Assembly (NCBI GenBank): GCA_964480775.1
Contig: CAYZRF010000029.1
Location: 1 to 19,594, forward strand
DNA length: 19,594 bases
DNA from: an uncultured Nitrososphaerota archaeon
Lineage (GTDB): Archaea; Korarchaeota; Korarchaeia; Korarchaeales; Korarchaeaceae
Direction of reading: 5' to 3'
Made by a program: the position numbers and the translations under genes. This document shows, piece by piece, positions 1,770-19,588 of the stretch; positions within the stretch are counted from its first letter, which is position 1, and the number at the start of each line of letters is the position of its first letter. The notes beneath the pieces were generated by a model that was given only the letters and a program-made list of their open reading frames with translations, was not told the DNA's origin and made no database searches.

Positions 1770-2051
1770 TCAACCTATCTCCTTCAACCTCTTGATTTCC
1801 TCGTCTATGATCTGAGGCTTGTTCAGAACTATGTATCTAATGACCTTTCTCATGCCATCTTCTGTTAGTTTCAGCCCCCCCTCCCAGTCTATACCAGATT
1901 CCCTTAAGCGGAAGAAGGACACAATTATTTCTCTTATCGCCTCGGATTTATTTGGGATTCCCCTCTCCCTCATAAAGTTCTCTATTTTCCTTTTGGTTTC
2001 GTTTCCATGAGCAAAGGCTGTTCTATGAGGCAGGGTTGACTTCCTACGCAT
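1770..2051 (-). CDS. Ribbon-helix-helix (CopG/Arc/MetJ-like) DNA-binding protein with C-terminal extension; paralogue of 17801-18085
   Basis: RHH pattern: beta strand HRTAFAHG, then helices KRKIENFMRERG and NKSEAIREIIVSFF. About half the residues are identical to 17801-18085 by eye. I prefer ATG 2051 (AAGGGTGGT RBS upstream; 8-nt overlap with the upstream stop) over the track's GTG 2060. Confidence 0.8.
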   Translation of the reverse strand: MRRKSTLPHRTAFAHGNETKRKIENFMRERGIPNKSEAIREIIVSFFRLRESGIDWEGGLKLTEDGMRKVIRYIVLNKPQIIDEEIKRLKEIG

Positions 2052-2295
2052 GGCTACCACCCTTTAGCTCCACCAATTTTTCAAGAGCCCAATCTCTCTC
2101 ATCCTCATCAACAGGAACCGAGGCTACTCTTGCCAGAAAGGCTTTCTTCGCCCTTTTAGTGAGCTGACAATAACAATAACCACAACTGGGACATACGAGA
2201 GTATTACAGATTGGACAGACCTTTGCCTCTGTTGGATCAAAGGGCTCCAGACAATGGAAGCAGATAGCGACTTTCAGCTTGGGCTTTGCGATCAT
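2044..2295 (-). CDS. Small Cys-rich zinc-finger/zinc-ribbon protein
   Basis: 83 aa with CFHC-x12-CPIC-x4-CPSC-x2-CYC. ATG start preceded by AAGGGG. First gene of the minus-strand three-gene cassette. Confidence 0.7.
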   Translation of the reverse strand: MIAKPKLKVAICFHCLEPFDPTEAKVCPICNTLVCPSCGYCYCQLTKRAKKAFLARVASVPVDEDERDWALEKLVELKGGSHA

Positions 2296-2498: not shown

Positions 2499-3497
2499 AT
2501 GAAAAAACTGGCGCTCATTTTAGTAGCTTTGCTTTTGATTCCTACCATAGCCCTCGTGAGAGTTGCGAGTGAGCAAGCCGTCTCTGGTCAACTGACTGTT
2601 GGGAACACGGCGCCTACAATAAACGGCATAGATATAACTGATACAAGCAACGTTTCGGTCTCCTCCATCAATGCGAACACAGAATATTGGATCTACATCT
2701 CTATATCCGACTCCAACACCCTTGCGGACATCAAGAACATCACGGTTTATCTGTTCCACGGAGACAAATACACAGATCCTCCCGGATCTTATGCTTTAAA
2801 CAATAGCTATGCCTTCGCTTGGGTAAACGGAAGCGGTTGGAAAGAGCTCGGACCCGATAGCACGGGAACCCCAAGCGATACTACTCCATCAGGCTATGAC
2901 CACATTCCCGGAACCTGCGCCGTTCCATCAGATTTCAGCGCTTCTACTGGACAATGGAAACTTTCATTCAAAGTCAGCAAGATAGCGGAAGACACGGGGG
3001 CAACGAACACTTGGTATGTGAACGTAACGGTCTATGATAATGCGAGCACTCCAAACACCGATAACATCGAGAGCACGTTTGACGTGAACTTCTACTCAGA
3101 GATCTCCGTTAACGCCACTTTGGTTACATGGGCTGGATCTCCGGGAGCTACTGGTCTATCTCCAAACGGAACAACGACCTATACTTTCATCTGTAATGAC
3201 GCCTACAATATAACGGCTAAGGGGACTGATTTCACTTCAGGAACCAACGTCATTGGAGTCGGGAACTTTACTGTCGATGACGATTCAACGCCAGATGAGG
3301 GAACCGAAACTGGCGTTGCTGAGCTCCAGCTTTCAACTACATATCAGACCTTCATAGAGAATGTTGGAGTCAGCACGACAGAGACGGGCGATGACAAAGA
3401 TTTCTGGTGGTTTGCGGACATTCCAGCAACCGTAGCAGAAGGAACTTATACTGGAACGCTTTACATATCGGTTAATGACTACAATCCTAACTCTTAG
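2499..3497 (+). CDS. Secreted sequon-rich surface protein, paralogue B of 169-1446
   Basis: Sec-type signal peptide MKKLALILVALLLIPTIALVRVASEQ. About ten N-x-S/T sequons by my count. The GNTAPTINGIDIT start of the mature part resembles Ig-like/cadherin-like domain boundaries. No C-terminal anchor. Confidence 0.9.
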   Translation: MKKLALILVALLLIPTIALVRVASEQAVSGQLTVGNTAPTINGIDITDTSNVSVSSINANTEYWIYISISDSNTLADIKNITVYLFHGDKYTDPPGSYALNNSYAFAWVNGSGWKELGPDSTGTPSDTTPSGYDHIPGTCAVPSDFSASTGQWKLSFKVSKIAEDTGATNTWYVNVTVYDNASTPNTDNIESTFDVNFYSEISVNATLVTWAGSPGATGLSPNGTTTYTFICNDAYNITAKGTDFTSGTNVIGVGNFTVDDDSTPDEGTETGVAELQLSTTYQTFIENVGVSTTETGDDKDFWWFADIPATVAEGTYTGTLYISVNDYNPNS

Positions 3498-3506
3498 GAG
3501 AGTAAA

Positions 3507-4541
3507 ATGAAGCGCTTGATTCCTCTACTCGTACTGCTTTCAGTAGGAGCGTTTAGTGTCTTTGCAGGTCCCTCAATAGGTCTGAGCTCGCCTTCCTATA
3601 TTTTCGAGGTGGTTCCCAGCACTACCATAAAGACGTATTTTCTTGTCTATAACCCAAGCAACAGCACGGTTACGATACATATAGAAGCAGAGGGTTTAGA
3701 GGTTTCATTCTCTCAAAACGATTTTGAGCTTAAAGGAGGAGAGAACCAGAAGGTCTACGTCTATATAACCGTTCCTCAAAGCCTACCTGCTTCAGGGCTA
3801 ATAGACATACAGCCCATCGGTGCAGGCAACATAATGGTCGGGGCTTCAAAGCAGATTTTCCTATCCCAGAAGGATCCATTCGTCGAGGTTAGCACAGATG
3901 TTGTTACGGTTGTTGAAGGAAAGTCCTTCTGTCTTAGGGTTACTCCTAATTTCCGATCTACAATCTCCATTTCTTATGATGATAGCTACTTGATCTTTGG
4001 AGAAACTCAGAAGGAGGCTTATGCCTGCGAAACTATAACATTCAGGGGAAGAGCCCTACGAGCTGGAACCACGAGAGTTAGTGTCAGAGCCGTTGGAGAA
4101 GGGCATGACGTCTCAAAGGAATTGGAGATAGAGATTGGGGGGTATAGTGGGCAGTTCTACGTTACATACCCTGATAAAATCTCGATCAGAGTTGGGGAGG
4201 TAAAGAAAGTAGAGTTTTGGGCTTCAAAATACTGTTCTCTTTTTGTTGATGAATATGATGATTCTATCATTTCTGTCAACGCTCCAAGCTTTCTAAATGC
4301 TGGGAGCAACTTCATCAAAATCGAGGGTTTGAAGAGAGGATCCACTACCCTGAAGATGCACGTTACCTATGAGAACATAACTGGATACATAACGATCAAC
4401 GTCAAAGTTGGGGGGATTGGCGGGCTCAACCTTCCCAGCGTTGGTGAGACAAGAGATTACCTTATTTTCGGTGGAATAATAAGTCTTTTTGCTCTTGGAA
4501 TCGTATTAAAGAAGAGAAAGCAGGAGTATTATGGGTATTAG
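3507..4541 (+). CDS. Secreted Ig-like multi-domain protein with C-terminal TM anchor
   Basis: RBS GGAG precedes the ATG. Signal peptide MKRLIPLLVLLSVGAFSVFAGPS. N-terminal CARDB/Ig-like pattern (FELKGGENQKVYVYITVP). Two Big_2-like patterns (VVTVVEGKSF...RAGTTRVSVRAVGEG and ISIRVGEVKK...KRGSTTLKMHVTYEN). C-terminal LIFGGIISLFALGIVLKKRK. Confidence 0.85.
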   Translation: MKRLIPLLVLLSVGAFSVFAGPSIGLSSPSYIFEVVPSTTIKTYFLVYNPSNSTVTIHIEAEGLEVSFSQNDFELKGGENQKVYVYITVPQSLPASGLIDIQPIGAGNIMVGASKQIFLSQKDPFVEVSTDVVTVVEGKSFCLRVTPNFRSTISISYDDSYLIFGETQKEAYACETITFRGRALRAGTTRVSVRAVGEGHDVSKELEIEIGGYSGQFYVTYPDKISIRVGEVKKVEFWASKYCSLFVDEYDDSIISVNAPSFLNAGSNFIKIEGLKRGSTTLKMHVTYENITGYITINVKVGGIGGLNLPSVGETRDYLIFGGIISLFALGIVLKKRKQEYYGY

Positions 4542-4548
4542 TTCATAA

Positions 4549-4575
4549 GCTTTTTTAGGTATCGGGCTCTTTTTA
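4549..4575 (+). terminator. Oligo-T tracts after 3507-4541
   Basis: gcttttttagg and ctctttttag follow the stop codon directly. Archaeal termination uses oligo-T. The next gene starts at 4581, so termination here may be only partial. Confidence 0.3.
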
Positions 4576-4580
4576 GAGGG

Positions 4581-5213
4581 ATGAAACGGGGCTTAGCACT
4601 ACTGCTACTTCTCTTTCTGCCGTGCATTGCTATCATAGCAGACGAAGAATCCGTGAGTGGAGAGGTTGGTGTCGGTCAATTCTATAATCTTACGATCTCT
4701 TCTTCAGGCATTTCTGAAATAGAGGGAAGAGCCCTCGTAAAAATAGATGGGAATGCTGTAGGTGAAGTCTACGACGGCTCTTCAATCACAGTTGAAGTTA
4801 AAGAAGGAACGCATAGTGTTTGGGTAGAGGAGCAAACTACTGGTGTTGAATATACATACTCTTTCGATCATTGGGAAGGAGGCTCTTCAGACGATCCGAT
4901 AACGATTAATGTTGTTTCTGATATGGAGCTCGTCGCCTATTACATAAAGACACCAATAACTACGCCCAGTCCACCACCTGTTCCCCCTCCCGGCACAAGA
5001 CCTCCTACAACAACGGCTCCCCCTCCCGTTACAACCGCTCCCCCGAAGGTTATCATTATAACTCCAAGCAGAGGCGCCTCTTTCTTCATTATTCTAATTA
5101 TACTTATTCTTCTGATAGTGGGCTTGATTCTTGTTCTATACTATAAAAAAGAGAAGGGGGAGAGCGCTCCTTCGTCTCAACTCAAAGGTTTTATTTTTCC
5201 CTTAATTAAATAA
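4581..5213 (+). CDS. Secreted protein: InlB-B-repeat-like beta domain, Pro/Thr-rich stalk, C-terminal TM anchor
   Basis: Signal peptide MKRGLALLLLLFLPCIAIIADEE. GSSITVEVKEGTHSVWVEE...YSFDHWEGGSSDDPITINVVSDMELVAYY matches the G..v.l.a.p..GY.F..W.G....np..i.m..d..v.A.F pattern of divergent InlB B-repeat domains. The stalk is TPSPPPVPPPGTRPPTTTAPPPVTTAPP, followed by TM FFIILIILILLIVGLILVLYY. Confidence 0.85.
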   Translation: MKRGLALLLLLFLPCIAIIADEESVSGEVGVGQFYNLTISSSGISEIEGRALVKIDGNAVGEVYDGSSITVEVKEGTHSVWVEEQTTGVEYTYSFDHWEGGSSDDPITINVVSDMELVAYYIKTPITTPSPPPVPPPGTRPPTTTAPPPVTTAPPKVIIITPSRGASFFIILIILILLIVGLILVLYYKKEKGESAPSSQLKGFIFPLIK

Positions 5214-5217
5214 AGGG

Positions 5218-8200
5218 ATGCAAAGGAAATCTCTGCCTCTCGCTTTCGCTTTTGCCTTCATTGTAATTATGGTTCTCTTCAGTCCTATAAAAGAATACAG
5301 CGCTCAGAACGAGCCTCCAAACAAACCAGAACTCTATGAACCAAGCCCTAGTGGAACTTATGTTACTACGATAACTCCTTGGTTGAACTGCACCTTCATC
5401 GATCCTGATGGAGATTCCATGAATGCAACGTGGTATTGGGCTAATGGAACGAAAATAGGAGAGGTTCTCAATATTCCTAACGGAACTACGACAGGAATTC
5501 AGGTAAATGTTGCTTGGGATTCTTCCTATAGCTGGTATGTCGTCGTTACAGATGGAACCTCTAACAATCAATCAGATACTTGGTCCTTTACAACATGGGC
5601 GCCGGGTTGCCTGTTATGGTACCCCTTGGATAGAGATGAGGTTCATGGAACCACAGTCTATGATAGGTCTGGAGCAGGAAATAATGGTTTAAGAGATTCT
5701 ACTGACAATGTTGTTCCCTATTTTTGGAATTATCCCGAAAACTACGTTTTCTGGCACAAGGGTGGCTCAACAAATGCCATACATTTTGATAGCTTAAAAA
5801 ATGAATTTTTAGCCAATGATTTCTGTGTCTTCGCTTGGACTTGGTTTTATGAGCTGGCTCCCGCAGGTCAGCATGGAATTTTTGCAACCCTTGGAAATAA
5901 GAAGGTTCGTCTCTATTCAAAAGATTATTACACTGGTAAGATAAAATTCTATGTTACATACACGAATGGGAGTTCTAAAGAATATGAAGCCAGCGAGGCT
6001 ATAGATGTTAAGAAATGGGTTGCTCTGGTGTATCAAAGAAAGGGTTCTAGACTTGAGATCTTTAAGAATACAACAAAAATTTTAGATCAGGACATAGGAA
6101 ATGAGGACTTTTTCATAGATTCGATTGATGATCATAGAATTGGCTATTACACGAATTGGTACGGGATGCCTAAGTTCTATGGAAAGGATTATCGGATTTA
6201 CAGTCGAGCCTTGACCTCAGAGGAAATTACTCAAGCGGAGTATTTGCTGCGTAACATAATTCCTGCTGGCTATCTTCAGATAAATTGGTCTTCTTGGGAA
6301 TTTGCTGAGAAATATTACTATATTGTCTACAAAGGAGACTTTAATACTGTTTACGCTTCTGGATCAACTACCAATACCTTCTTTAACATAAGCTATGAAC
6401 CGGGGTTCCAATACTTTGTTAAGATCATCGCAGAAGATACCTCGCAGAGCAAAAACACGACATGGCTTGTTGAGAGCTTCATGACAGATGGTGCACCTCC
6501 ATTAGAGGGCTGCTTTGGTTGGTGGACTTTAGATGAAGGATCTGGATCTATCGCCTATGACTATTCTGGTTGGGGAAACAATGGAACAATTACTGGCGCT
6601 ATTTGGAAATACATAAACGAGAGCTGGGGCTATGCTCTTAGCTTTGATGGAGGAGGATATTACGTTGATTGTGGGTTTGGAGACCTTCTAAACCCGAAAG
6701 GAGATCCCTTTACTATTGTAGCTCTAGTTTCGACCAATTACACAAACCTTGGTGGAATGTTTGGAAAGGTTATGTATGGAATGGGTACCAGCACAGAGTT
6801 TGGATTCTTCTACTATCAGCATAAATGGTATTTTACCGTAGGACCTCCGAGAGCTAATCTTTATTCGGATGAATATGACACGGGATCTTGGTACCTTATT
6901 CAGGGATTAAGAAAGAGCGATGACTACATATATTTCTATGTAAATGGAATAAAACAGGCTGGAACTGCTCAGGTGACAGGAATAACTGGTTTTGAGGACT
7001 TCCCCTTCTACATAGGAAGGGCAGCTACTGGGATTTATCCGGGCGCAGCTATTCAGGATGAGCATCGGTATTATAGAAGGGCTTTAACTGATTCTGAGCT
7101 CAATCAGACTGCATATCTTCTATCGCACATAATTCCTGCTGGCTATCTTCAGATAAATTGGTCTTCTTGGAGTTATGCTGATAAATACTACTATGAGGTA
7201 TGGCAAGATAACTTCAGCACGTTATATGCTTCAGGAGTAACAACGGATACATATGTAAATTTGAGTTACGATCCCTCGCACAAGTATTATGTAAGAATAA
7301 TAGCGGAAAATTCTTCTTATAATCTGAACTTAACTTGGCTCGTCGAAGATTTCTATGTGAAGAACAACTGTCCTCAAGCTTCCTTGGCTTCTCCCTTACC
7401 GAACGGGACGATAATAAACAGCATTAATCCTTGGTTAAATAGCACATTTATCGATTTGGATCTTCATTTGATGAATGCAACGTGGTATTGGGCTAATGGA
7501 ACGAAAATAGGAGAGGTTCTCAATATTCCTAACGGAACTACGACAGGAATTCAAGTGAACTTGCAAAGAGGAAGATGGTACTATTTCTATATCAATACGA
7601 CTGATGGATGGGATATCAACCAAACAAAGATCTTTGCATTCTATGTAAACGCCCTTCCAGAGATCCACAGTATAAACGTTAACTCCTCCTCCATCTTTAG
7701 AGGAAAGGCTTTGAACATAACGGCAAACATAGATGACCTTGAGGACATTCCTGAAGTCTATATTTCTATAGGAAAAGATGGCTCTTGGTTCGTGGTCAAT
7801 CAGTCTATGACCTACCTTGGATCAAATGTGTTTTCCTACATCTACAGTCCAGCTTTCTCAGATGCCATCGGTTCATACGACATAAAGATATACTCCAACG
7901 ATAGCAACGGAGGAGAGAATACTCTACTCATCAATTCTGCCTTTAATGTCAAGAATAATCCTCCAGCAATTCTAGAAATTAACATTCCTACTCCAACAGA
8001 AGGGAAGCTATCTACTATTACGATAAACGTAACTGATCTTGAGACTTCCACCGATCTTCTCCGTGTTCATGTCGAAATAGAGAAGAAGGGTTCTACTCTG
8101 GCTTCTGGAGAAGCAACCTACAAGGACGGAGTCTTTGTCTTTAGCTGGACTCCTCCCGCTGGCAGTAGCGATCCGACGGCTATAATAACAGTTACAGACA

Positions 8201-8463
8201 AGGATGGTAACTCTACAACAACCTCTGTTGATTTCAACGTTCAGAGCCCATCGAGCACGGGCGGAGGCACACCAAGCGGGGGTGGGACACCTTCGTCCTC
8301 GGGTTGGAGTCCACCTCGAACCTTCCCAGCACCGCCGGGCGACGAGGATGTTATTGTTGTTCCAACAGAAGGAGAAGGAACCTCTGTAAAGATTCCTATA
8401 ATACTTGCGATCGTATGTGCAGCAGTCGGCATAACTTATGGATTTGCAAGAAAAAGGGAATAG
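5218..8463 (+). CDS. Giant surface protein with two LamG (concanavalin-A-like lectin) domains, duplicated modules, Ig-like repeats and a C-terminal TM anchor; putative adhesin
   Basis: 1081 aa with a signal-like N-terminus. Two Laminin_G_3-type signatures (GCLLWYPLDRDEVHGTTVYDRSGAGNNGL and GCFGWWTLDEGSGSIAYDYSGWGNNGTITG). Each is followed by an FN3-like module starting IIPAGYLQINWSSW. The NATWYWANGTKIGEVLNIPNGTTTGIQVN module occurs at both ends. Two Ig-like domains begin with NALPEI and NNPPAI. A Gly/Ser/Thr/Pro linker is followed by TM ILAIVCAAVGITYGFARKRE. Confidence 0.9.
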   Translation: MQRKSLPLAFAFAFIVIMVLFSPIKEYSAQNEPPNKPELYEPSPSGTYVTTITPWLNCTFIDPDGDSMNATWYWANGTKIGEVLNIPNGTTTGIQVNVAWDSSYSWYVVVTDGTSNNQSDTWSFTTWAPGCLLWYPLDRDEVHGTTVYDRSGAGNNGLRDSTDNVVPYFWNYPENYVFWHKGGSTNAIHFDSLKNEFLANDFCVFAWTWFYELAPAGQHGIFATLGNKKVRLYSKDYYTGKIKFYVTYTNGSSKEYEASEAIDVKKWVALVYQRKGSRLEIFKNTTKILDQDIGNEDFFIDSIDDHRIGYYTNWYGMPKFYGKDYRIYSRALTSEEITQAEYLLRNIIPAGYLQINWSSWEFAEKYYYIVYKGDFNTVYASGSTTNTFFNISYEPGFQYFVKIIAEDTSQSKNTTWLVESFMTDGAPPLEGCFGWWTLDEGSGSIAYDYSGWGNNGTITGAIWKYINESWGYALSFDGGGYYVDCGFGDLLNPKGDPFTIVALVSTNYTNLGGMFGKVMYGMGTSTEFGFFYYQHKWYFTVGPPRANLYSDEYDTGSWYLIQGLRKSDDYIYFYVNGIKQAGTAQVTGITGFEDFPFYIGRAATGIYPGAAIQDEHRYYRRALTDSELNQTAYLLSHIIPAGYLQINWSSWSYADKYYYEVWQDNFSTLYASGVTTDTYVNLSYDPSHKYYVRIIAENSSYNLNLTWLVEDFYVKNNCPQASLASPLPNGTIINSINPWLNSTFIDLDLHLMNATWYWANGTKIGEVLNIPNGTTTGIQVNLQRGRWYYFYINTTDGWDINQTKIFAFYVNALPEIHSINVNSSSIFRGKALNITANIDDLEDIPEVYISIGKDGSWFVVNQSMTYLGSNVFSYIYSPAFSDAIGSYDIKIYSNDSNGGENTLLINSAFNVKNNPPAILEINIPTPTEGKLSTITINVTDLETSTDLLRVHVEIEKKGSTLASGEATYKDGVFVFSWTPPAGSSDPTAIITVTDKDGNSTTTSVDFNVQSPSSTGGGTPSGGGTPSSSGWSPPRTFPAPPGDEDVIVVPTEGEGTSVKIPIILAIVCAAVGITYGFARKRE
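5419..5501 (+). repeat. 83-nt tract 100% identical to 7471-7553 within the same gene
   Basis: Hand-checked: atgaatgcaacgtggtattgggctaatggaacgaaaataggagaggttctcaatattcctaacggaactacgacaggaattca is present in both copies. DNA immediately 5' and 3' of the tract is diverged. Confidence 0.95.
6254..6297 (+). repeat. 44-nt tract 100% identical to 7127-7170 within the same gene
   Basis: acataattcctgctggctatcttcagataaattggtcttcttgg is present in both copies. It encodes the IIPAGYLQINWSSW start of the two FN3-like modules. Confidence 0.95.
7471..7553 (+). repeat. Second copy of the 83-nt identical tract (partner 5419-5501)
   Basis: See partner feature. Confidence 0.95.
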
Positions 8464-8490
8464 TTTTCGAAGGTATAACTTTATAAGAAG

Positions 8491-9285
8491 TTGATATACT
8501 TCATACATGGTGATGAAGTGCCAAGAGTAGGACCAATATGGTTCGATGTAGCTGAAGCCAGAGACTTCTTAGTGATGAAGGGAATGGTCTCTACCCTTAG
8601 ACCAAGAAAGAGAACTGAAGGAATAACGATAGCCATGTTCCATGGAAAAGATGGAGTAGTGAAAATAGGGCGTGTCGTCGTTCGATTCATAGCTGAGATA
8701 GATGATCCTGAAGAAGATCTCATGGAGCTCGTGCCTTTTTCAGGCTTCAAGTCTTTGGAAGCTTGGTTGAAAGCTGCCAAAGGATCCAGATTCCTCTACC
8801 TTGTCTTCTTGATAGAGCCCTTGGATCTCAAGAAAAGATTTGAGATACTCTCTCAGGGGAAAGGTAGCAGAGATCTTGAGATCCTTAGGAAGATGATCGA
8901 GGAAGGGAATGAAAAAGACTTTACTCACGCTGGGTTGCCGTGCCACATTCATAGAACTCAACAGGGCTTCCTTTGTGGATATGTGGGTGTTCCAAGTAGC
9001 CATCCACTCTATGGAGTTGGATTGGATATCTTAGAAGAGATCCCCCTTGACATCGTTCATGGAGGCGTAACTTGGGCTGGTCGAGCTCATTGGAAGGAGG
9101 ATGAGTTCTGGTATTTTGGATTTGACTGTGGTCACTATGGGGATTATGCCCCCTTCTTTATAGCTAATGCGCCAGACGCCAAATATAGAGATATGGAATA
9201 TGTAGAGAAGGAGTGCAGGCGGTTAGCTGAGTTATTATCAAATGTGAGGTGGTTGGGTGCCAGACTTGAACGTGAAAGTTCCTGA
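8491..9285 (+). CDS. Two-domain protein: ASCH/PUA-like N-terminal half fused to a conserved phage/plasmid-type domain of unknown function
   Basis: N-terminal half: IWFDVAEARDFLVMKGMVSTLRP...VVVRFIAEI...SGFKSLEAWLKAA...LYLVFL resembles the ASCH pattern (tentative). C-terminal half: GYVGVPSSHPLYG...VHGGVTWAGR...FWYFGFDCGHYGDYAP...YRDMEYVEKECRRLAELL is a motif string I recognise from uncharacterised phage proteins but cannot name. Start is ambiguous (TTG 8491, or GTG 8518 preceded by GGTGA). Confidence 0.7.
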   Translation: MIYFIHGDEVPRVGPIWFDVAEARDFLVMKGMVSTLRPRKRTEGITIAMFHGKDGVVKIGRVVVRFIAEIDDPEEDLMELVPFSGFKSLEAWLKAAKGSRFLYLVFLIEPLDLKKRFEILSQGKGSRDLEILRKMIEEGNEKDFTHAGLPCHIHRTQQGFLCGYVGVPSSHPLYGVGLDILEEIPLDIVHGGVTWAGRAHWKEDEFWYFGFDCGHYGDYAPFFIANAPDAKYRDMEYVEKECRRLAELLSNVRWLGARLERESS

Positions 9286-9523
9286 AAAGAGAGAAGAGAT
9301 AGCTATTGTCGCCTGTGTGAAGGCTGTTCCAGTTCAGAAAGAGATCGTAATAGAGCACGGAGTTGCGAGGGAGGACATCTGCGTTGAATGCCCAATCAGC
9401 GGGATATGCGTAAAGATAGGAGAATGCCTTTCATGCCCCCACTTCGTCTCTCTCACAAAGGTCAGGAAGAGCAAGATAAAGCGCCACAGGCTGGGGTGGT
9501 TCGACGTTGACCTTCCTCTCTGA
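9257..9523 (+). CDS. Cys-rich mini-protein (putative metal-binding), translationally coupled to the primase gene
   Basis: GTG start preceded by GAGGTGG at 4-nt spacing. Cluster CVEC-x5-C-x6-C-x2-CPH. Overlaps the upstream stop by 29 nt and the primase start by 17 nt. Basic tail KVRKSKIKRHR. Confidence 0.55.
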   Translation: MPDLNVKVPEKREEIAIVACVKAVPVQKEIVIEHGVAREDICVECPISGICVKIGECLSCPHFVSLTKVRKSKIKRHRLGWFDVDLPL

Positions 9524-10703
9524 GGAAGAGATCAGAGCTTTCTATGAGAAGCAGGACTTTAGTCCGCTCTTTAAGCTCGATCCGAAGTTCTTCAAATGGA
9601 GACAAATTCGCTTAATGCTAAGCAATGGAAAGTTTCTAAAGATCAGAAGGAATGTCTCTTCACCTCAAGCACTTCAGAAGATTCTGCTGAAATTTCTGCC
9701 TGTGAAGGCATACTACATGGTGGCTCGTTTCTCTCAGCCAAGGAGCGTTGGAGCAAGAGATGGTCCCAAAGGTGCTGGATATGTCGTTGCCGATAACTGC
9801 TTTCTGTTTCAGGATGAATTTGTCTTTGACGTCGATGAGGATCCAGAGAAGAATCTTCCAGCATTAATCTCCTATCTACGAGAGAAGGGCTTCCCCATAA
9901 AATACATCTGCTTTTCAGGGAAGAGAGGCTACCATGTGTGTATAAAAAGACCGATTCGGCTTCGGATAGAGGATCCAAGGTCGAGGGAACAGCTTACGTT
10001 AGCCCACAACAAAGCATTGATAGAGGACGTTCTTAGCAGAGGCATAGCCGTCGACGATACATCGAACACAAGACAGATCGTCAAGATTCCGCTATCTTTA
10101 GATGCAACAACAGGTAATGAATGTTTTTTAGTTAGGAACCCGTTTGGGTTCATAGGGCTAGGGAACCTCAGAAGAGGTGATGACAGAGAGCCGTTTGCCG
10201 AGTGCAACACCGAGGACGGCGGGGGAGCTAGCCCTACCCCCCGTCCTCAGTTTAATCTCCTTCTCTGCGTTTCAAACAACGTCTTGGGAACGAGAGGTCA
10301 GTATGTCCCCTTCCTGAAGTTTGAAGGAGCTAAGAAAGAAAGAGTTAGAGCCATTCTCAAGAAGATAAGAGAGCGCTATGGAATAGGATCCTTCTATGTA
10401 TTTGAAGATGAGGAGGTTTTTGTGGCTGTCTCTTTAGAGATTGTTTCTTTTGAAAGGTTGATGAAAATCCTAAGATTTGCTAAGCAATGGGGCTATCTCA
10501 ACGCCTTAAGAAAATACAAGCACAACCTTTTAGAGCTCTCTTTCTTCAAGAAACCCGTAGCATATACGCCAAGAGGTGGTAGGAGCATATCTAAAGGGCA
10601 CCTACATCTTCTCAGGGTGTATGGCGTTCCAAATCTCCCATCAGGAGATCTGAATTTTGCAGGAAATGGAAAGGTGAGGATTGGTCTCTATGCCTCGAAG
10701 TGA
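9507..10703 (+). CDS. PriS-like archaeo-eukaryotic primase (AEP) catalytic subunit homologue with an extra C-terminal domain
   Basis: AEP motifs are present in order: motif I FVFDVDED, motif II FSGKRGYHVCI, motif III TRQIVKIPLSLDATTG. The N-terminus (EEEIRAFYEKQ...VKAYYMVARF) is collinear with cellular PriS. TTG start is preceded by GGGGTGG. The motif I-II spacer is ~23 aa with a single Cys, so it has no zinc knuckle. Confidence 0.85.
   Translation: MTFLSEEEIRAFYEKQDFSPLFKLDPKFFKWRQIRLMLSNGKFLKIRRNVSSPQALQKILLKFLPVKAYYMVARFSQPRSVGARDGPKGAGYVVADNCFLFQDEFVFDVDEDPEKNLPALISYLREKGFPIKYICFSGKRGYHVCIKRPIRLRIEDPRSREQLTLAHNKALIEDVLSRGIAVDDTSNTRQIVKIPLSLDATTGNECFLVRNPFGFIGLGNLRRGDDREPFAECNTEDGGGASPTPRPQFNLLLCVSNNVLGTRGQYVPFLKFEGAKKERVRAILKKIRERYGIGSFYVFEDEEVFVAVSLEIVSFERLMKILRFAKQWGYLNALRKYKHNLLELSFFKKPVAYTPRGGRSISKGHLHLLRVYGVPNLPSGDLNFAGNGKVRIGLYASK
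10212..10248. repeat. GC-rich inverted repeat (8+4 bp stem) inside the primase CDS
   Basis: GAGGACGG (10212-10219) pairs with CCGTCCTC (10241-10248). After one bulged C, GGGG (10221-10224) pairs with CCCC (10037+200 i.e. 10237-10240). The loop contains the palindrome GCTAGC. The repeat encodes the Gly/Pro linker EDGGGASPTPRPQ between the two primase domains. Confidence 0.7.
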
Positions 10704-10950
10704 TTACATGAAGTTATGGGGCTGGATTACAAGGAACTTCGACTTCAGCGAATATATGAGTCCAGAAGAGGCTAGGGCTGCTCTTGAGGATTACTTCGCA
10801 AGAGAGGGGAGTATCGGAGCTCTTATGGCTTTAGGCACAGGTTATTTTGATGACTTGATAGCAAGAGAAGTCATCAGACAGGCTATTCCTGAGTATCTTC
10901 CAGAATGGTACGAGTCCACAGAGAGAGAAAGCCTTGAAGAATGGACATAG
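10690..10950 (+). CDS. Small acidic protein of unknown function
   Basis: ATG 10690 is in frame with the track's TTG 10681, is preceded by AAGGTGAGGA and overlaps the primase stop by 14 nt. 86 aa, Glu/Asp-rich and predicted helical. Confidence 0.6.
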   Translation: MPRSDYMKLWGWITRNFDFSEYMSPEEARAALEDYFAREGSIGALMALGTGYFDDLIAREVIRQAIPEYLPEWYESTERESLEEWT

Positions 10951-10962
10951 TTTTTATTTTTT
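10951..10962 (+). terminator. Oligo-T tract after the acidic-protein gene
   Basis: tttttatttttt follows the stop codon directly. A GAGGAGGT RBS for the next gene comes right after it, so this may attenuate rather than fully terminate. Confidence 0.3.
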
Positions 10963-10981
10963 GAGGAGGTAAAAAGGAAGA

Positions 10982-11464
10982 ATGCCCCAAGAATCGACTG
11001 CTAAAATACTCAACTGCTTACTTCTTGCAAAGAACGCTCTAACTCCTAAAGAGATTAGTGAGAGAACGGGGGTTTCTCATCTTTATGTAAAAAAGCGTCT
11101 CCGTGAGTTAGAGGCTGATGGGAAAGTTGTCAGGCTTGAGAGGGGGAGATACCTAATTAGTGACCTTGGGGTAACTTTCGTAAAACCAGTCGAAGAATCG
11201 CCCATAGAACTTTTGATAAAAAAGATAAATGAGATAAATCAGAAATTGGATCTCATACTTCAAGGAAAGGTCGATTTGACCATAAATAAGGAATCTCTTA
11301 AGCAAGAAGTTAGGGAGACCATGCCAGAGATTAGAAGAGAGGTTGCAAAGCCTGTAGAGAGACCTAAGATACAGAAGCCGAAGATGAAACTACCCGCAGG
11401 AATCCCTGATTTTGTAGCAGACAATCCTTGGGGCGAGATAATTAGTGAAAAAGGCAGAAGATAG
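10982..11464 (+). CDS. Winged-helix-turn-helix DNA-binding protein with coiled-coil C-terminal half
   Basis: Strong RBS GAGGAGGT 8 nt upstream of the ATG. LTPKEISERTGVSHLYVKKRLRELEADGKVVRLERGRYLIS is a MarR/ArsR-type wHTH pattern. A helical, K/E-rich tail follows. Confidence 0.85.
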   Translation: MPQESTAKILNCLLLAKNALTPKEISERTGVSHLYVKKRLRELEADGKVVRLERGRYLISDLGVTFVKPVEESPIELLIKKINEINQKLDLILQGKVDLTINKESLKQEVRETMPEIRREVAKPVERPKIQKPKMKLPAGIPDFVADNPWGEIISEKGRR

Positions 11465-11473
11465 GCAAAAAAA

Positions 11474-11558
11474 GGGCAGGCATCATCTGGATGACCACCC
11501 AGCCGCTATCCCGACTAGATTGCTCCCGCTCCGAGGGAGGAGGTGAGTCCGCCTGCCC
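11474..11558 (+). ncRNA. Candidate structured small RNA or 3'-UTR element (GC island E1); strand uncertain
   Basis: 85 nt with 56/85 G+C by hand count, against the AT-rich surroundings. Closing helix GGGCAGGC/GCCTGCCC. Internal hairpins TCAT-CTGG-ATGA (11483-11494) and CTCCC-GCTCCGA-GGGAG (11523-11539). Followed by an oligo-T tract. No ORF and no tRNA features. Confidence 0.35.
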
Positions 11559-12242: not shown

Positions 12243-12276
12243 CGTGAATCTTAGTGGGAAAATAATAAAAGTTTTC

Positions 12277-12552
12277 TTAAAACTTCTTTCTTCTCGATAA
12301 AATGTAAAAAGTCAGAAGGGATAGAGAAAGACCAAAGATTACAAAATTCGGATTAAAAGAAAGGATGGAGAGCATAGCTCCTATCAAAAGGATTAGGAGA
12401 GGCTTCCTATCCTTTTCTTTTTTGATCCCAAACCTCTTTTTGAAAAGATCTACTCGCCTACTTATAAGACGCCTCTCCTTTTTCAGGCTCATACAGAAAA
12501 AAGTAAAGGATCCTTTTCTTAAAAGCGCTTCGTTACTTGTGCCAAGTCTCAT
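12277..12552 (-). CDS. Small basic membrane protein (start uncertain: ATG 12552 or 12492)
   Basis: C-terminal two hydrophobic helices PLLILLIGAMLSILSF and FVIFGLSLSLLTFYIL follow a Lys/Arg-rich segment. The track start at 12633 would overlap the divergent gene's start head-to-head, so I shortened it. Confidence 0.4.
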   Translation of the reverse strand: MRLGTSNEALLRKGSFTFFCMSLKKERRLISRRVDLFKKRFGIKKEKDRKPLLILLIGAMLSILSFNPNFVIFGLSLSLLTFYILSRRKKF

Positions 12553-12623
12553 AAATTTCTCGAAAATCGGGATGTTTTTGGGAATCTTTTTTAAAAAGTA
12601 ATGTGCAGTATTTTGTGCAGAAA

Positions 12624-14760: not shown

Positions 14761-15150
14761 TTATAGAACTCCTGCTTTATGAAGATTCATTCTGAACCTT
14801 CGTATCTGATGTTTTAGAAGATTGGGAGATTTTCCTACAGTTATAGCTATGTCCTTTATCCTTATTCTTTCTTTCGGAATCGTGTTCTCTGCTATGTTTT
14901 TTGGTTTTATCTTTGTTTGAGACAGATCCATCTCAACAAGCCCTTCTTTTTCCATATCCAGAAGAGTGGTTATTATGGTCTTTGTAGAAAATGATTCCCA
15001 TCCCTCATAAAGACACCAAAGGTTCATTAGCTTCAGCAACTCTTCCAAAGTCATGTTCTCGTTTTTTAGCATATTTTTTGGAGTCTCAGTAAGAATCGTG
15101 AAGATTATCTGTTTGATTGGTGGTCTTGGGATCTTAGAGAAAGTTTCCAT
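14761..15150 (-). CDS. Putative winged-helix DNA-binding protein
   Basis: 129 aa. TLEELLKLMN...FSTKTIITTLLDMEKEGLVEMD resembles a wHTH recognition helix plus wing. Overlaps the upstream gene's stop by 17 nt. Last gene of the operon. Confidence 0.65.
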   Translation of the reverse strand: METFSKIPRPPIKQIIFTILTETPKNMLKNENMTLEELLKLMNLWCLYEGWESFSTKTIITTLLDMEKEGLVEMDLSQTKIKPKNIAENTIPKERIRIKDIAITVGKSPNLLKHQIRRFRMNLHKAGVL

Positions 15151-19273: not shown

Positions 19274-19588
19274 TCAACCACCGTATTTCTCACCGCAATA
19301 ATAGTGTTTCTCAATCAACTCTTCAAGTTCATTTACCACTTCGATGATTTTTTGCCAATCACTATTTTCTTCGTTGCAAAATCCATGAAATTGCGCATAT
19401 GGACATTCAATTTCGTCGCAATAAATCGGAAATCCTTTTTTCCGTGCTTCAAGATTTCGCAAAACGCAAAAATAGCAGGCGTCGCCAGATATTGGAAATT
19501 TTCCAAGCCAAGCAAGCAGTATTTGTTGTTTAAGACTCATTATCTCCTCAACAGTTTTGGCTTTTTTCATCAATTCCAACAGATGCAT
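19274..19588 (-). CDS. Cys-rich hypothetical protein (104 aa)
   Basis: CYFC-x22-C-x4-C-x9-C plus His residues suggest a metal-binding fold. The start lies close to the window edge, so the upstream context is unseen. Confidence 0.6.
   Translation of the reverse strand: MHLLELMKKAKTVEEIMSLKQQILLAWLGKFPISGDACYFCVLRNLEARKKGFPIYCDEIECPYAQFHGFCNEENSDWQKIIEVVNELEELIEKHYYCGEKYGG

Follow-up and report, generated by a model that had tools for sequence, protein, structure and literature searches.

Archaeo-eukaryotic primases (AEPs) are thought to need a helper module for synthesis of the first dinucleotide, and to our knowledge all of the AEP helpers characterised so far (PriL-CTD, the C-terminal domain of PriL, together with PriX, PriCT and the helix-bundle domain, HBD) are helical. 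Cellular PriS-PriL primases possess a zinc knuckle/stem, whereas pRN1 ORF904, RSF1010 RepB', NrS-1, PolpTN2 and NEQ395 combine in one chain an AEP domain and, joined to it by a linker, an accessory domain, and are encoded by mobile elements save for the cellular Nanoarchaeum enzyme NEQ395, a PriS-PriL fusion. The accessory domains of these monomeric primases are all-helical bundles (PriCT-1/2, PriX-like or PriL-CTD), and NEQ395 and PolpTN2 contain an Fe-S cluster. Nearly all structurally known AEPs carry a zinc motif: a review published in 2015 recorded it in every AEP structure then reported except that of RepB', and described its role as unclear (PMC4434180). A zinc-less enzyme of later date is the NrS-1 Prim-Pol (PMC8718748); RepB' and NrS-1 are both without the motif (PMC4434180, PMC8718748, PMC10250227, PMC5862659).

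The stretch of DNA considered here, hereafter the window, is an entire contig of 19.6 kb (19,594 nucleotides, nt) from an uncultured Nitrososphaerota archaeon placed by GTDB in the Korarchaeaceae. Its gene at 9507-10703 on the + strand encodes a 398-amino acid (aa) primase that follows the same logic as the monomeric enzymes, but is without a fused helicase, and its accessory domain is predicted to be of mixed alpha/beta type with seven strands rather than an all-helical bundle. The protein belongs to a sizeable and previously undescribed family of single-chain PriS-like primases whose members are without the usual zinc knuckle and have a new domain at the C-terminus. We lean towards reading the surrounding region as an operon that initiates the replication of an archaeal mobile element (a virus or a plasmid), in which a PriS-like primase core would be served by a helper C-terminal domain and by recruitment through acidic and helix-turn-helix (HTH) proteins, a reading that we judge somewhat better than an even call. 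The primase itself is divided as follows, conservation counts and the family profile throughout being those of 76 aligned members and pLDDT denoting the predicted local distance difference test of the AlphaFold model.

9507..10151, + strand: AEP catalytic domain, aa 1-215 of the 398-aa primase; PriS clade, without zinc knuckle
9819..9842, + strand: motif I, FVFDVDED (D108, D110), from conservation in the alignment
9912..9944, + strand: motif II, FSGKRGYHVCI (S137, G138, G141, H143), from conservation in the alignment
10041..10058, + strand: motif III, GIAVDD (catalytic D183), aligning with the PriS motif III region
10068..10115, + strand: conserved segment TRQIVKIPLSLDATTG (R189, K193, P195, S197) 3' of motif III, aligning with RLIRIPNSLHGKSG of Sulfolobus PriS
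10152..10238, + strand: disordered linker of Gly, Pro and acidic residues, aa 216-244 (pLDDT <50)
10239..10703, + strand: family-specific mixed alpha/beta C-terminal domain, aa 245-398, from the AlphaFold model and conservation

The AEP motifs hhhDhD, sxH and hD are represented, in that order, by D108 and D110, S137-x5-H143 and D183. The three aspartates are retained almost throughout the family (D108 in 73/76 members, D110 in 75/76 and D183 in 73/76), G141 is invariant (76/76), and position 143 is occupied by His in 62 members and by Gln in 11, a motif II substitution known from PolpTN2-like AEP families (PMC5862659). The original prediction, made from the letters of the sequence, had recognised three AEP motifs in order and an N-terminus collinear with PriS. 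The motif I aspartates, motif II and the profile alignment to PriS all agree with it, although the stretch that it took for motif III, TRQIVKIPLSLDATTG, proved to be a segment lying downstream of the real motif III, GIAVDD with D183. This segment, of the form R/K-x-P-x-S/T-x3-K/T-G, is a further likeness to PriS, with K or R at position 193 in 76/76 members, P195 in 68/76 and S or T at position 197 in 75/76.

Searches conducted with the window primase alone gave E 0.11 against Pfam DNA_primase_S, nothing against PHROGs, E 3e-5 against NCBIfam PriS with motif II as the only aligned part, and CAPP Prim-Pol as the best match in the PDB (E 0.016); TIGR00335 scored 23.5 bits against a cut-off of 143.5, and members of the family miss the PriS equivalog cut-offs. 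A tblastn search of phage records with the primase returned no match. A word-indexed homologue search recovered three proteins with the primase as query and four with the 76-sequence profile. An exhaustive HMMER search of cluster representatives, seeded with the primase and its two close relatives, established a family of 522 representatives at E<=1e-3 (307 at E<=1e-10), most of them of ~400 aa and matching across both domains. When the family profile was deployed, the best match was Sulfolobus PriS (1zt2/5of3; E 8.4e-21), followed by Pyrococcus PriS (E 2.8e-16 to 1.6e-15), eukaryotic Pri1 (E about 1e-5), LigD PolDom (E 3e-4) and CAPP Prim-Pol (E 6e-4). Profile positions 7-104 fell on residues 18-106 of Sulfolobus PriS, and the collinearity with archaeal PriS (PF01896; 1zt2/5of3, 1g71, 1v33), which shares the same AEP fold, extends to the 'YY' helix. 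Individually, 36/76 members match PF01896 and 38/76 match phrog_16345 'primase'. The AlphaFold model of the 398-aa protein (pLDDT 89.5) gave PriS 5of3_A as its top Foldseek match (E 1.5e-7, target-normalised TM score 0.49), with human and yeast Pri1 and LigD PolDom next. With PriS as best match both by profile and by structure, and with the catalytic Asp and His positions conserved, the proposed placement in the AEP superfamily holds, and on the combined testimony of sequence and model the product of 9507-10703 is a genuine PriS-clade AEP.

Readable DNA was available for eleven independent related loci (numbered L001-L016; each of the near-identical pairs L003/4, L008/9, L010/11 and L012/13 is taken as one), and all of the open reading frames (ORFs) of the window were compared with those of the eleven loci by BLASTP and jackhmmer. 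These neighbourhoods, together with the searches above, bear on an alternative explanation, namely that the protein is either a cellular primase of an undersampled archaeal lineage lying on a chromosomal fragment, or an AEP of repair, translesion synthesis or defence akin to LigD PolDom or the CRISPR-associated Prim-Pol. The CAPP Prim-Pol match of the single sequence points in the latter direction, as do the 10/76 members that touch the LigD_Prim-Pol model. However, the family profile scores PriS far better (8e-21, as against 3e-4 to 6e-4 for LigD and CAPP), for which reason the PriS clade is preferred over the Prim-Pol and non-homologous end-joining families, and no ligase, Ku or CRISPR gene was found nearby in any locus. 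A chromosomal origin draws support from one relative, P0013 (JGI 3300075153; 30% identical to the window primase), which lies between pyrF-like (orotidine monophosphate, OMP, decarboxylase), Band_7 and VTT genes and bears the JGI name 'DNA primase catalytic subunit', and also from the L010 contig, which carries Alba, Hjc and polyprenyl synthase genes. Set against this, a close-subfamily pattern built from a 12-sequence alignment found no relative in 185,579 GTDB species genomes and none in IMG/VR, with a single locus in JGI metagenomes, while the window and most of the loci are made up of short orphan ORFs, ribbon-helix-helix (RHH) and winged helix-turn-helix (wHTH) regulators and surface or fibre-like proteins, as is typical of archaeal viruses and plasmids. 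We regard this alternative, in either of its forms, as improbable.

Inteins typically lodge in essential replication proteins. One relative (P0118) has an intein within motif II (...DYVAF/SLTGDS...ILLHN/TGHKGFR, slashes marking the junctions), and another (P0058) has one just past the AEP domain (...VEPN/CIIPG...VVVHN/CDAERL); their presence in two members may be taken as a sign of an important, active enzyme.

The spacer between motifs I and II of the window primase, noted in the original prediction as short and with one Cys, measures 26 aa with that single Cys, and forms in the model a helix between two strands; by way of contrast, Sulfolobus PriS has an insert of ~40 aa which is skipped in the alignment. 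Because the spacer is short (24-36 aa) and contains at most two Cys (0-2) in every one of the 76 aligned members, the absence of the zinc knuckle holds across the family, as read from the alignment. The other half of a cellular PriS-PriL primase was likewise sought: no PriL family match was found among the window ORFs covered by the Pfam scan (most ORFs >=75 aa), in line with what had been proposed, nor among the genes called in the related loci; the host may encode a PriL of its own.

The primase gene is the third in a set of five + strand ORFs which overlap or are tightly spaced, the overlaps between the first four being 29, 17 and 23 nt.

8491..9285, + strand: 264-aa two-domain protein, with an N-terminal orphan domain (~aa 1-130) and a C-terminal phrog_2164 domain (~aa 134-253)
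9257..9523, + strand: 88-aa Cys-rich mini-protein, with a GTG start, GAGGTG 5 nt upstream and a 17-nt overlap with the primase start
9507..10703, + strand: 398-aa primase
10681..10950, + strand: 89-aa acidic protein of isoelectric point (pI) 4.3, bearing W-x-W-x3-(N)-(F/V)-D-F-S, G-x-F-D-D and a C-terminal EEW, with homologues in related loci
10982..11464, + strand: 160-aa basic winged-helix protein, with a wHTH at aa 8-57 followed by a coiled-coil-like region (Pfam)

The 88-aa mini-protein immediately upstream has the pattern C42-x2-C45-x5-C51-x6-C58-x2-C61, which includes two CxxC pairs (CVEC and CLSC), and a basic C-terminal tail (pI 11). The ORF is a real one, and it is translationally coupled to the primase gene, with the 17-nt overlap and a ribosome-binding site inside the upstream gene. 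No match was obtained in Pfam (zinc ribbons included, E<=10), PHROG, NCBIfam or the PDB, and a scan of IMG/VR was empty; the product is probably a lineage-specific small protein for which metal binding and nucleic-acid binding are predicted.

The original prediction took the mini-protein to be the missing metal- and template-binding module acting in trans: it would bind zinc, dock on the primase and supply the knuckle that PriS usually carries in cis. In addition to the coupling of the two genes, this proposal can call upon the closest homologue of the window primase (L001; 44% identical), directly upstream of which lies a 61-aa ORF (L001:6601-6786) with the pattern C-P-x4-C-x6-C-x2-C and a basic tail, and upon small zinc-ribbon-like ORFs within ~1.5 kb upstream of the primase in several other loci (for example L002:1556-1744, L005:34-153, L007:417-734 and L012:9364-9558). 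The L001 ORF is without the first CxxC, the pattern in common being C-x5-C-x6-C-x2-C. Its similarity to the mini-protein is, however, marginal (pairwise BLASTP E 0.01), and jackhmmer recovered a homologue of the mini-protein in none of the related loci. Among the eleven independent loci the four-Cys pattern occurs at the primase-upstream site in L001 only; the equivalent position in L015, a related element described below, is occupied by an unrelated Cys-free ORF of 94 aa, and in L006 the upstream ORF is truncated by the end of the contig. The other Cys-rich ORFs near primases are not homologous to the mini-protein, and since such small ORFs are scattered through these elements, also at a distance from the primase (L003:3311-3595; window 2044-2295 and 19274-19588), proximity to a primase says little. 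The Cys-rich ORF is absent from most homologous loci, an outcome that the original prediction had itself named as counting against it. As the whole family is without the knuckle and yet most members are without this ORF, it is unlikely that a zinc module acting in trans is required, and RepB' and NrS-1 function as zinc-less primases without such a partner (PMC4434180, PMC8718748). We consider the proposal very improbable.

A different small protein, sORF-B (~85 aa; motif KD-x2-F-x-FEF...A-x-RRG-x-W-x-KK), is absent from the window; five independent loci have it on the upstream side of the primase.

L003:1-231: sORF-B
L005:1373-1633: sORF-B
L007:417-734 and 731-967: sORF-B, two copies
L010:9199-9462: sORF-B
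L016:165-431: sORF-B

One of the L007 copies has a CxxC...CxxC zinc ribbon fused at its N-terminus. No Pfam match was found for sORF-B, and its hidden Markov model gives negative scores to the mini-proteins of both the window and L001.

The primase's C-terminal portion was originally described as a domain of about 150 aa and unknown fold behind a Gly/Pro linker, and this description was upheld: the linker (27 to 76 aa across the family) is disordered, the domain (~150 aa; seven predicted strands and five helices) is confidently modelled with pLDDT mostly >90, and no sequence relative was detectable outside the primase family. A profile of the domain found no chain at E<=0.1 in the PDB, PriS structures included, which distinguishes the protein from PriS, and a Pfam scan of the domain in 30 members gave no consistent family. 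A BFVD Foldseek search with the whole primase model returned AEP domains only, and whole-model PDB searches were likewise dominated by AEPs. The notion that the domain is a duplicate of the AEP domain was rejected (hhalign probability 0.8%). Its most conserved positions are S362 (75/76), G386 (74/76), H365 (73/76), K320 (67/76) and G261 (67/76). The only Cys column present in at least 20/76 members is C309 (32/76), and no Cys cluster is conserved; unlike NEQ395, the family is without the four-Cys set of 4Fe-4S ligands in this domain. For want of a Cys cluster, and from its predicted fold, the domain does not appear to behave like the helical helpers PriL-CTD, PriX, PriCT and HBD (PMC5862659, PMC10250227).

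In one locus the domain is also found as a stand-alone gene of 182 aa (L003:2015-2563), which shares an operon with a full-length primase and follows it two genes downstream, the two being 27% identical over 130 aa (E 2e-13). Because this stand-alone paralogue exists, the domain can be regarded as autonomous.

The mobility of the domain as a separate gene is also relevant to a second explanation, in which it would be a sequence-specific origin-binding or recruitment domain, comparable with the ferredoxin-like domains by which viral initiators of the Rep/E1 type bind origins, and the whole protein an initiator-primase that would itself recognise the origin of the element. The predicted order of elements, beta-beta-alpha-beta-beta-alpha followed by helices, would be compatible with a ferredoxin-like or RNA recognition motif (RRM)-like core, and the whole primase is basic (pI 9.8). 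Nevertheless, the PDB profile search with the domain was empty, and hhalign placed it against the family's own RRM-like AEP domain with a probability of <1%. Furthermore, a Ser-x-x-His that stays nearly invariant in elements so far diverged from one another points to chemistry or ligand binding rather than to the recognition of varied origins, and separate HTH proteins lie beside the primase in most loci. An origin-binding role for the domain therefore seems unlikely, and a helper role remains the preferred reading.

The gene immediately downstream of the primase encodes the acidic protein, which is the recurring primase neighbour found and, on that showing, a better candidate partner for the primase than the Cys-rich ORF. 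Its homologue in L015 (L015:1565-1840; 34% identity, BLASTP E 1.5e-7) is likewise immediately downstream of the primase, and jackhmmer added L014:4917-5339, also immediately downstream, L016:2615-3172 and L010:12323-12982, all of them downstream of the primase gene. They have in common D-Y-x-R-L-x2-W-x3-N-V-D-F-S, G-x-F-D-D and, at the C-terminus, EEW. In L016 the protein runs on into a wHTH-like region (HVO_A0261_N, E 1e-3, below the Pfam cut-off), and in L010 into a Myb-like HTH (E 6.6e-5; 23.4 bits, the cut-off being 24.4). From this pattern, in which an HTH module is in some cases apparently fused to the acidic domain and in others encoded as its neighbour, the acidic domain would link the primase to a DNA-binding module. 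Profile matches of the acidic protein to designed pentatricopeptide (PPR) repeats in the PDB were dismissed as repeat artefacts (per-domain E 3 to 41), and when it was aligned by MAFFT with the ORFs that follow the primase in L001, L002 and L003 no real homology emerged.

In the window the HTH module would be provided by the last gene of the set, whose 160-aa product exceeds the Pfam cut-offs for both HTH_24 (E 1e-6; 28.7 bits against 21.9) and HTH_11 (E 3e-6; 27.3 bits against 25), and could serve as a DNA-binding regulator or bind the origin. The compact operon that had been envisaged, with an acidic protein and a wHTH protein beside the primase, is present as five co-directional ORFs.

The best comparator for the core genes of this type of element is L015 (ENA ERZ23486261 scaffold_11724), which, since it has five genes in common with the window, is to be regarded on gene content as a related element. 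Besides the primase the shared genes, one of them at 48% identity, are located in the window as follows.

8491-9285, + strand: 264-aa protein
10681-10950, + strand: acidic protein
14761-15150, - strand: gene shared with L015
18949-19236, - strand: gene shared with L015

Directly upstream of the primase in L016 is a gene for a TFIIB-repeat protein. The Alba and Hjc genes of L010 likewise fit an archaeal mobile element. Other genes of the related loci encode YopX, LAGLIDADG and large beta-helix fibre-like proteins, besides numerous short orphan ORFs, and several of these loci derive from cold-seep metagenomes of the South China Sea (PMC9357000).

In the favoured reading, an element without a helicase or DNA polymerase of its own would rely on the operon for the initiation of replication. 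The single-chain PriS-clade primase, complete in its acidic triad and in the His of motif II, would form the core, and the flexible linker would tether the family-specific alpha/beta domain to the AEP domain. The former would take over the job done elsewhere by PriL-CTD, PriX, PriCT or a helix bundle, that of keeping template and initiating nucleotide in place while the dinucleotide is made, with Ser-x-x-His and the conserved Lys/Arg residues possibly participating. Primers laid on the element DNA would then be extended by host polymerases. The acidic protein would probably bridge the basic primase and the DNA-binding HTH module, which is a separate wHTH protein in the window and apparently fused to the acidic domain in two relatives, while the mini-protein and the phrog_2164 fusion would be lineage-specific accessory genes rather than core parts of the primase. 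We infer every step beyond the catalytic domain. A bolder formulation, in which an alpha/beta Ser-x-x-His domain replaces both the knuckle and the helix bundle, an acidic adaptor couples an HTH origin binder, and the whole represents a third independent solution to dinucleotide initiation, strikes us as possible but doubtful.

A number of observations weigh against the favoured reading. Since the predicted alpha/beta topology of the C-terminal domain differs from that of all known primase helpers, which are all-helical, the helper role is assigned purely by analogy. The acidic protein occurs in 5/12 independent loci with DNA (the window plus the eleven), several contigs being too short to judge; the HTH assignments in L016 and L010 are both sub-cut-off in Pfam; and no homologue of the wHTH protein was found in the related loci. 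The neighbourhood of P0013 looks chromosomal, and some members of the family may therefore be chromosomal. In the window, no origin, iterons or terminal repeats were found, nothing suggests that the contig is circular, and it bears neither a virion nor an integrase hallmark, the term 'mobile element' being a call made on gene content.

The 264-aa protein encoded by the first gene of the operon was originally described as a fusion of an ASCH/PUA-like half with a His/Asp-rich domain associated with phages. The second half of that description is sound, the phage domain being phrog_2164 (E 7.9e-30; aa 134-253 on profile positions 16-129 of 135). The ASCH/PUA label found no support, the N-terminal half having neither any Pfam match at E<=10, ASCH (PF04266) included, nor a Foldseek match, the latter saying little with a model of pLDDT <50 in that region. 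Because the N-terminal half stands alone in L015 (L015:3099-3410, - strand), its one stand-alone homologue and the only one found, the 264-aa protein can be accepted as a genuine fusion. All 94 of the database homologues cover the C-terminal half alone, in which the model has pLDDT >90 for most of aa 130-250 (75-88 in three blocks), as compared with <50 over much of the N-terminal half. Profile searches of the PDB and Pfam gave nothing for the protein, the phrog_2164 half included, and Foldseek of the model against the PDB gave no match below E 0.3.

The phrog_2164 half is rich in Cys, His and Asp, and matches the whole of the profile that includes phage G gp45 and early-region proteins of N4-like coliphages; it retains the invariant motifs C-G-Y, G-F-D-C-x-H-x2-D and H-G-G common to 60 homologues, and these invariant residues suggest a putative metal site. 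The domain was found in 292 phage records (223 Staphylococcus; 43 Escherichia, N4-like coliphages included; Bacillus phage G gp45), all of those listed being hypothetical or unnamed. Elsewhere, in bacteria and phages, it stands alone as a protein of ~150 aa, and in Bas90, the sole phage record examined, its gene lies within an early block of small genes; here, by contrast, it is fused to a 130-aa orphan domain beside a primase. At window 8878-9282 an otherwise bacterial and phage domain sits in an archaeal-type element, joined to an orphan domain. Nothing links the 264-aa protein to replication.

The + strand genes of the window span 2499-11464, the part upstream of the operon consisting of secreted or membrane-anchored proteins of Ig/LamG type, the largest of 1081 aa. 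The gap between the surface-protein gene and the operon is 27 nt. Shine-Dalgarno-like sequences precede the starts of the 88-aa ORF (GAGGTG) and the 398-aa ORF (GGGGTGG), and inspection of the sequence revealed two further signals.

8481..8487, + strand: TATA-like box TTTATAA, in the 27-nt gap before the operon
10951..10963, + strand: oligo-T tract TTTTTATTTTTT followed by GAGGAGG, between the acidic-protein and wHTH genes

The former is a candidate archaeal promoter, and if it serves as such the first gene of the operon may truly start at the GTG at 8518; the latter is possibly an attenuating terminator combined with a ribosome-binding site. A hairpin at 11473-11558 was not significant as an RNA or DNA feature (z = -1.5), a sigma-70 promoter and terminator scan gave signal at or under chance with a model inapplicable to archaea, and the apparent conservation of an antisense ORF (9929-10210, - strand) was brought about by that of the primase gene encoded on the opposite strand.

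The remainder of the contig contains mainly short orphan ORFs, with Pfam matches to RHH, wHTH and DUF3467 among them, and ORF and feature scans of the window turned up no tRNA and no Rfam family, and neither a terminal repeat nor a gene for an integrase, helicase, DNA polymerase or capsid. Between the gene blocks, the AT-rich stretch at 12243-12602 contains TTTTCTTAAAA twice, ATCCTTTTCTT twice, a palindrome centred on GGATCC and a 16-nt inverted repeat, and is a candidate regulatory or origin region. The surface-protein genes at 169-1446 and 2499-3497 are paralogues, their nucleotide repeats being 73-79% identical at a constant offset of ~2051 nt, and the 1081-aa LamG/Ig protein has an internal duplication that is 87% identical (5371-5507 compared with 7423-7559).

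A family numbering hundreds of members, which dispenses with both the zinc motif and a helical helper and has another conserved domain instead, would be a compact natural test of what priming requires, and it marks a replication module for uncultured archaeal elements represented in sediment and seep metagenomes.

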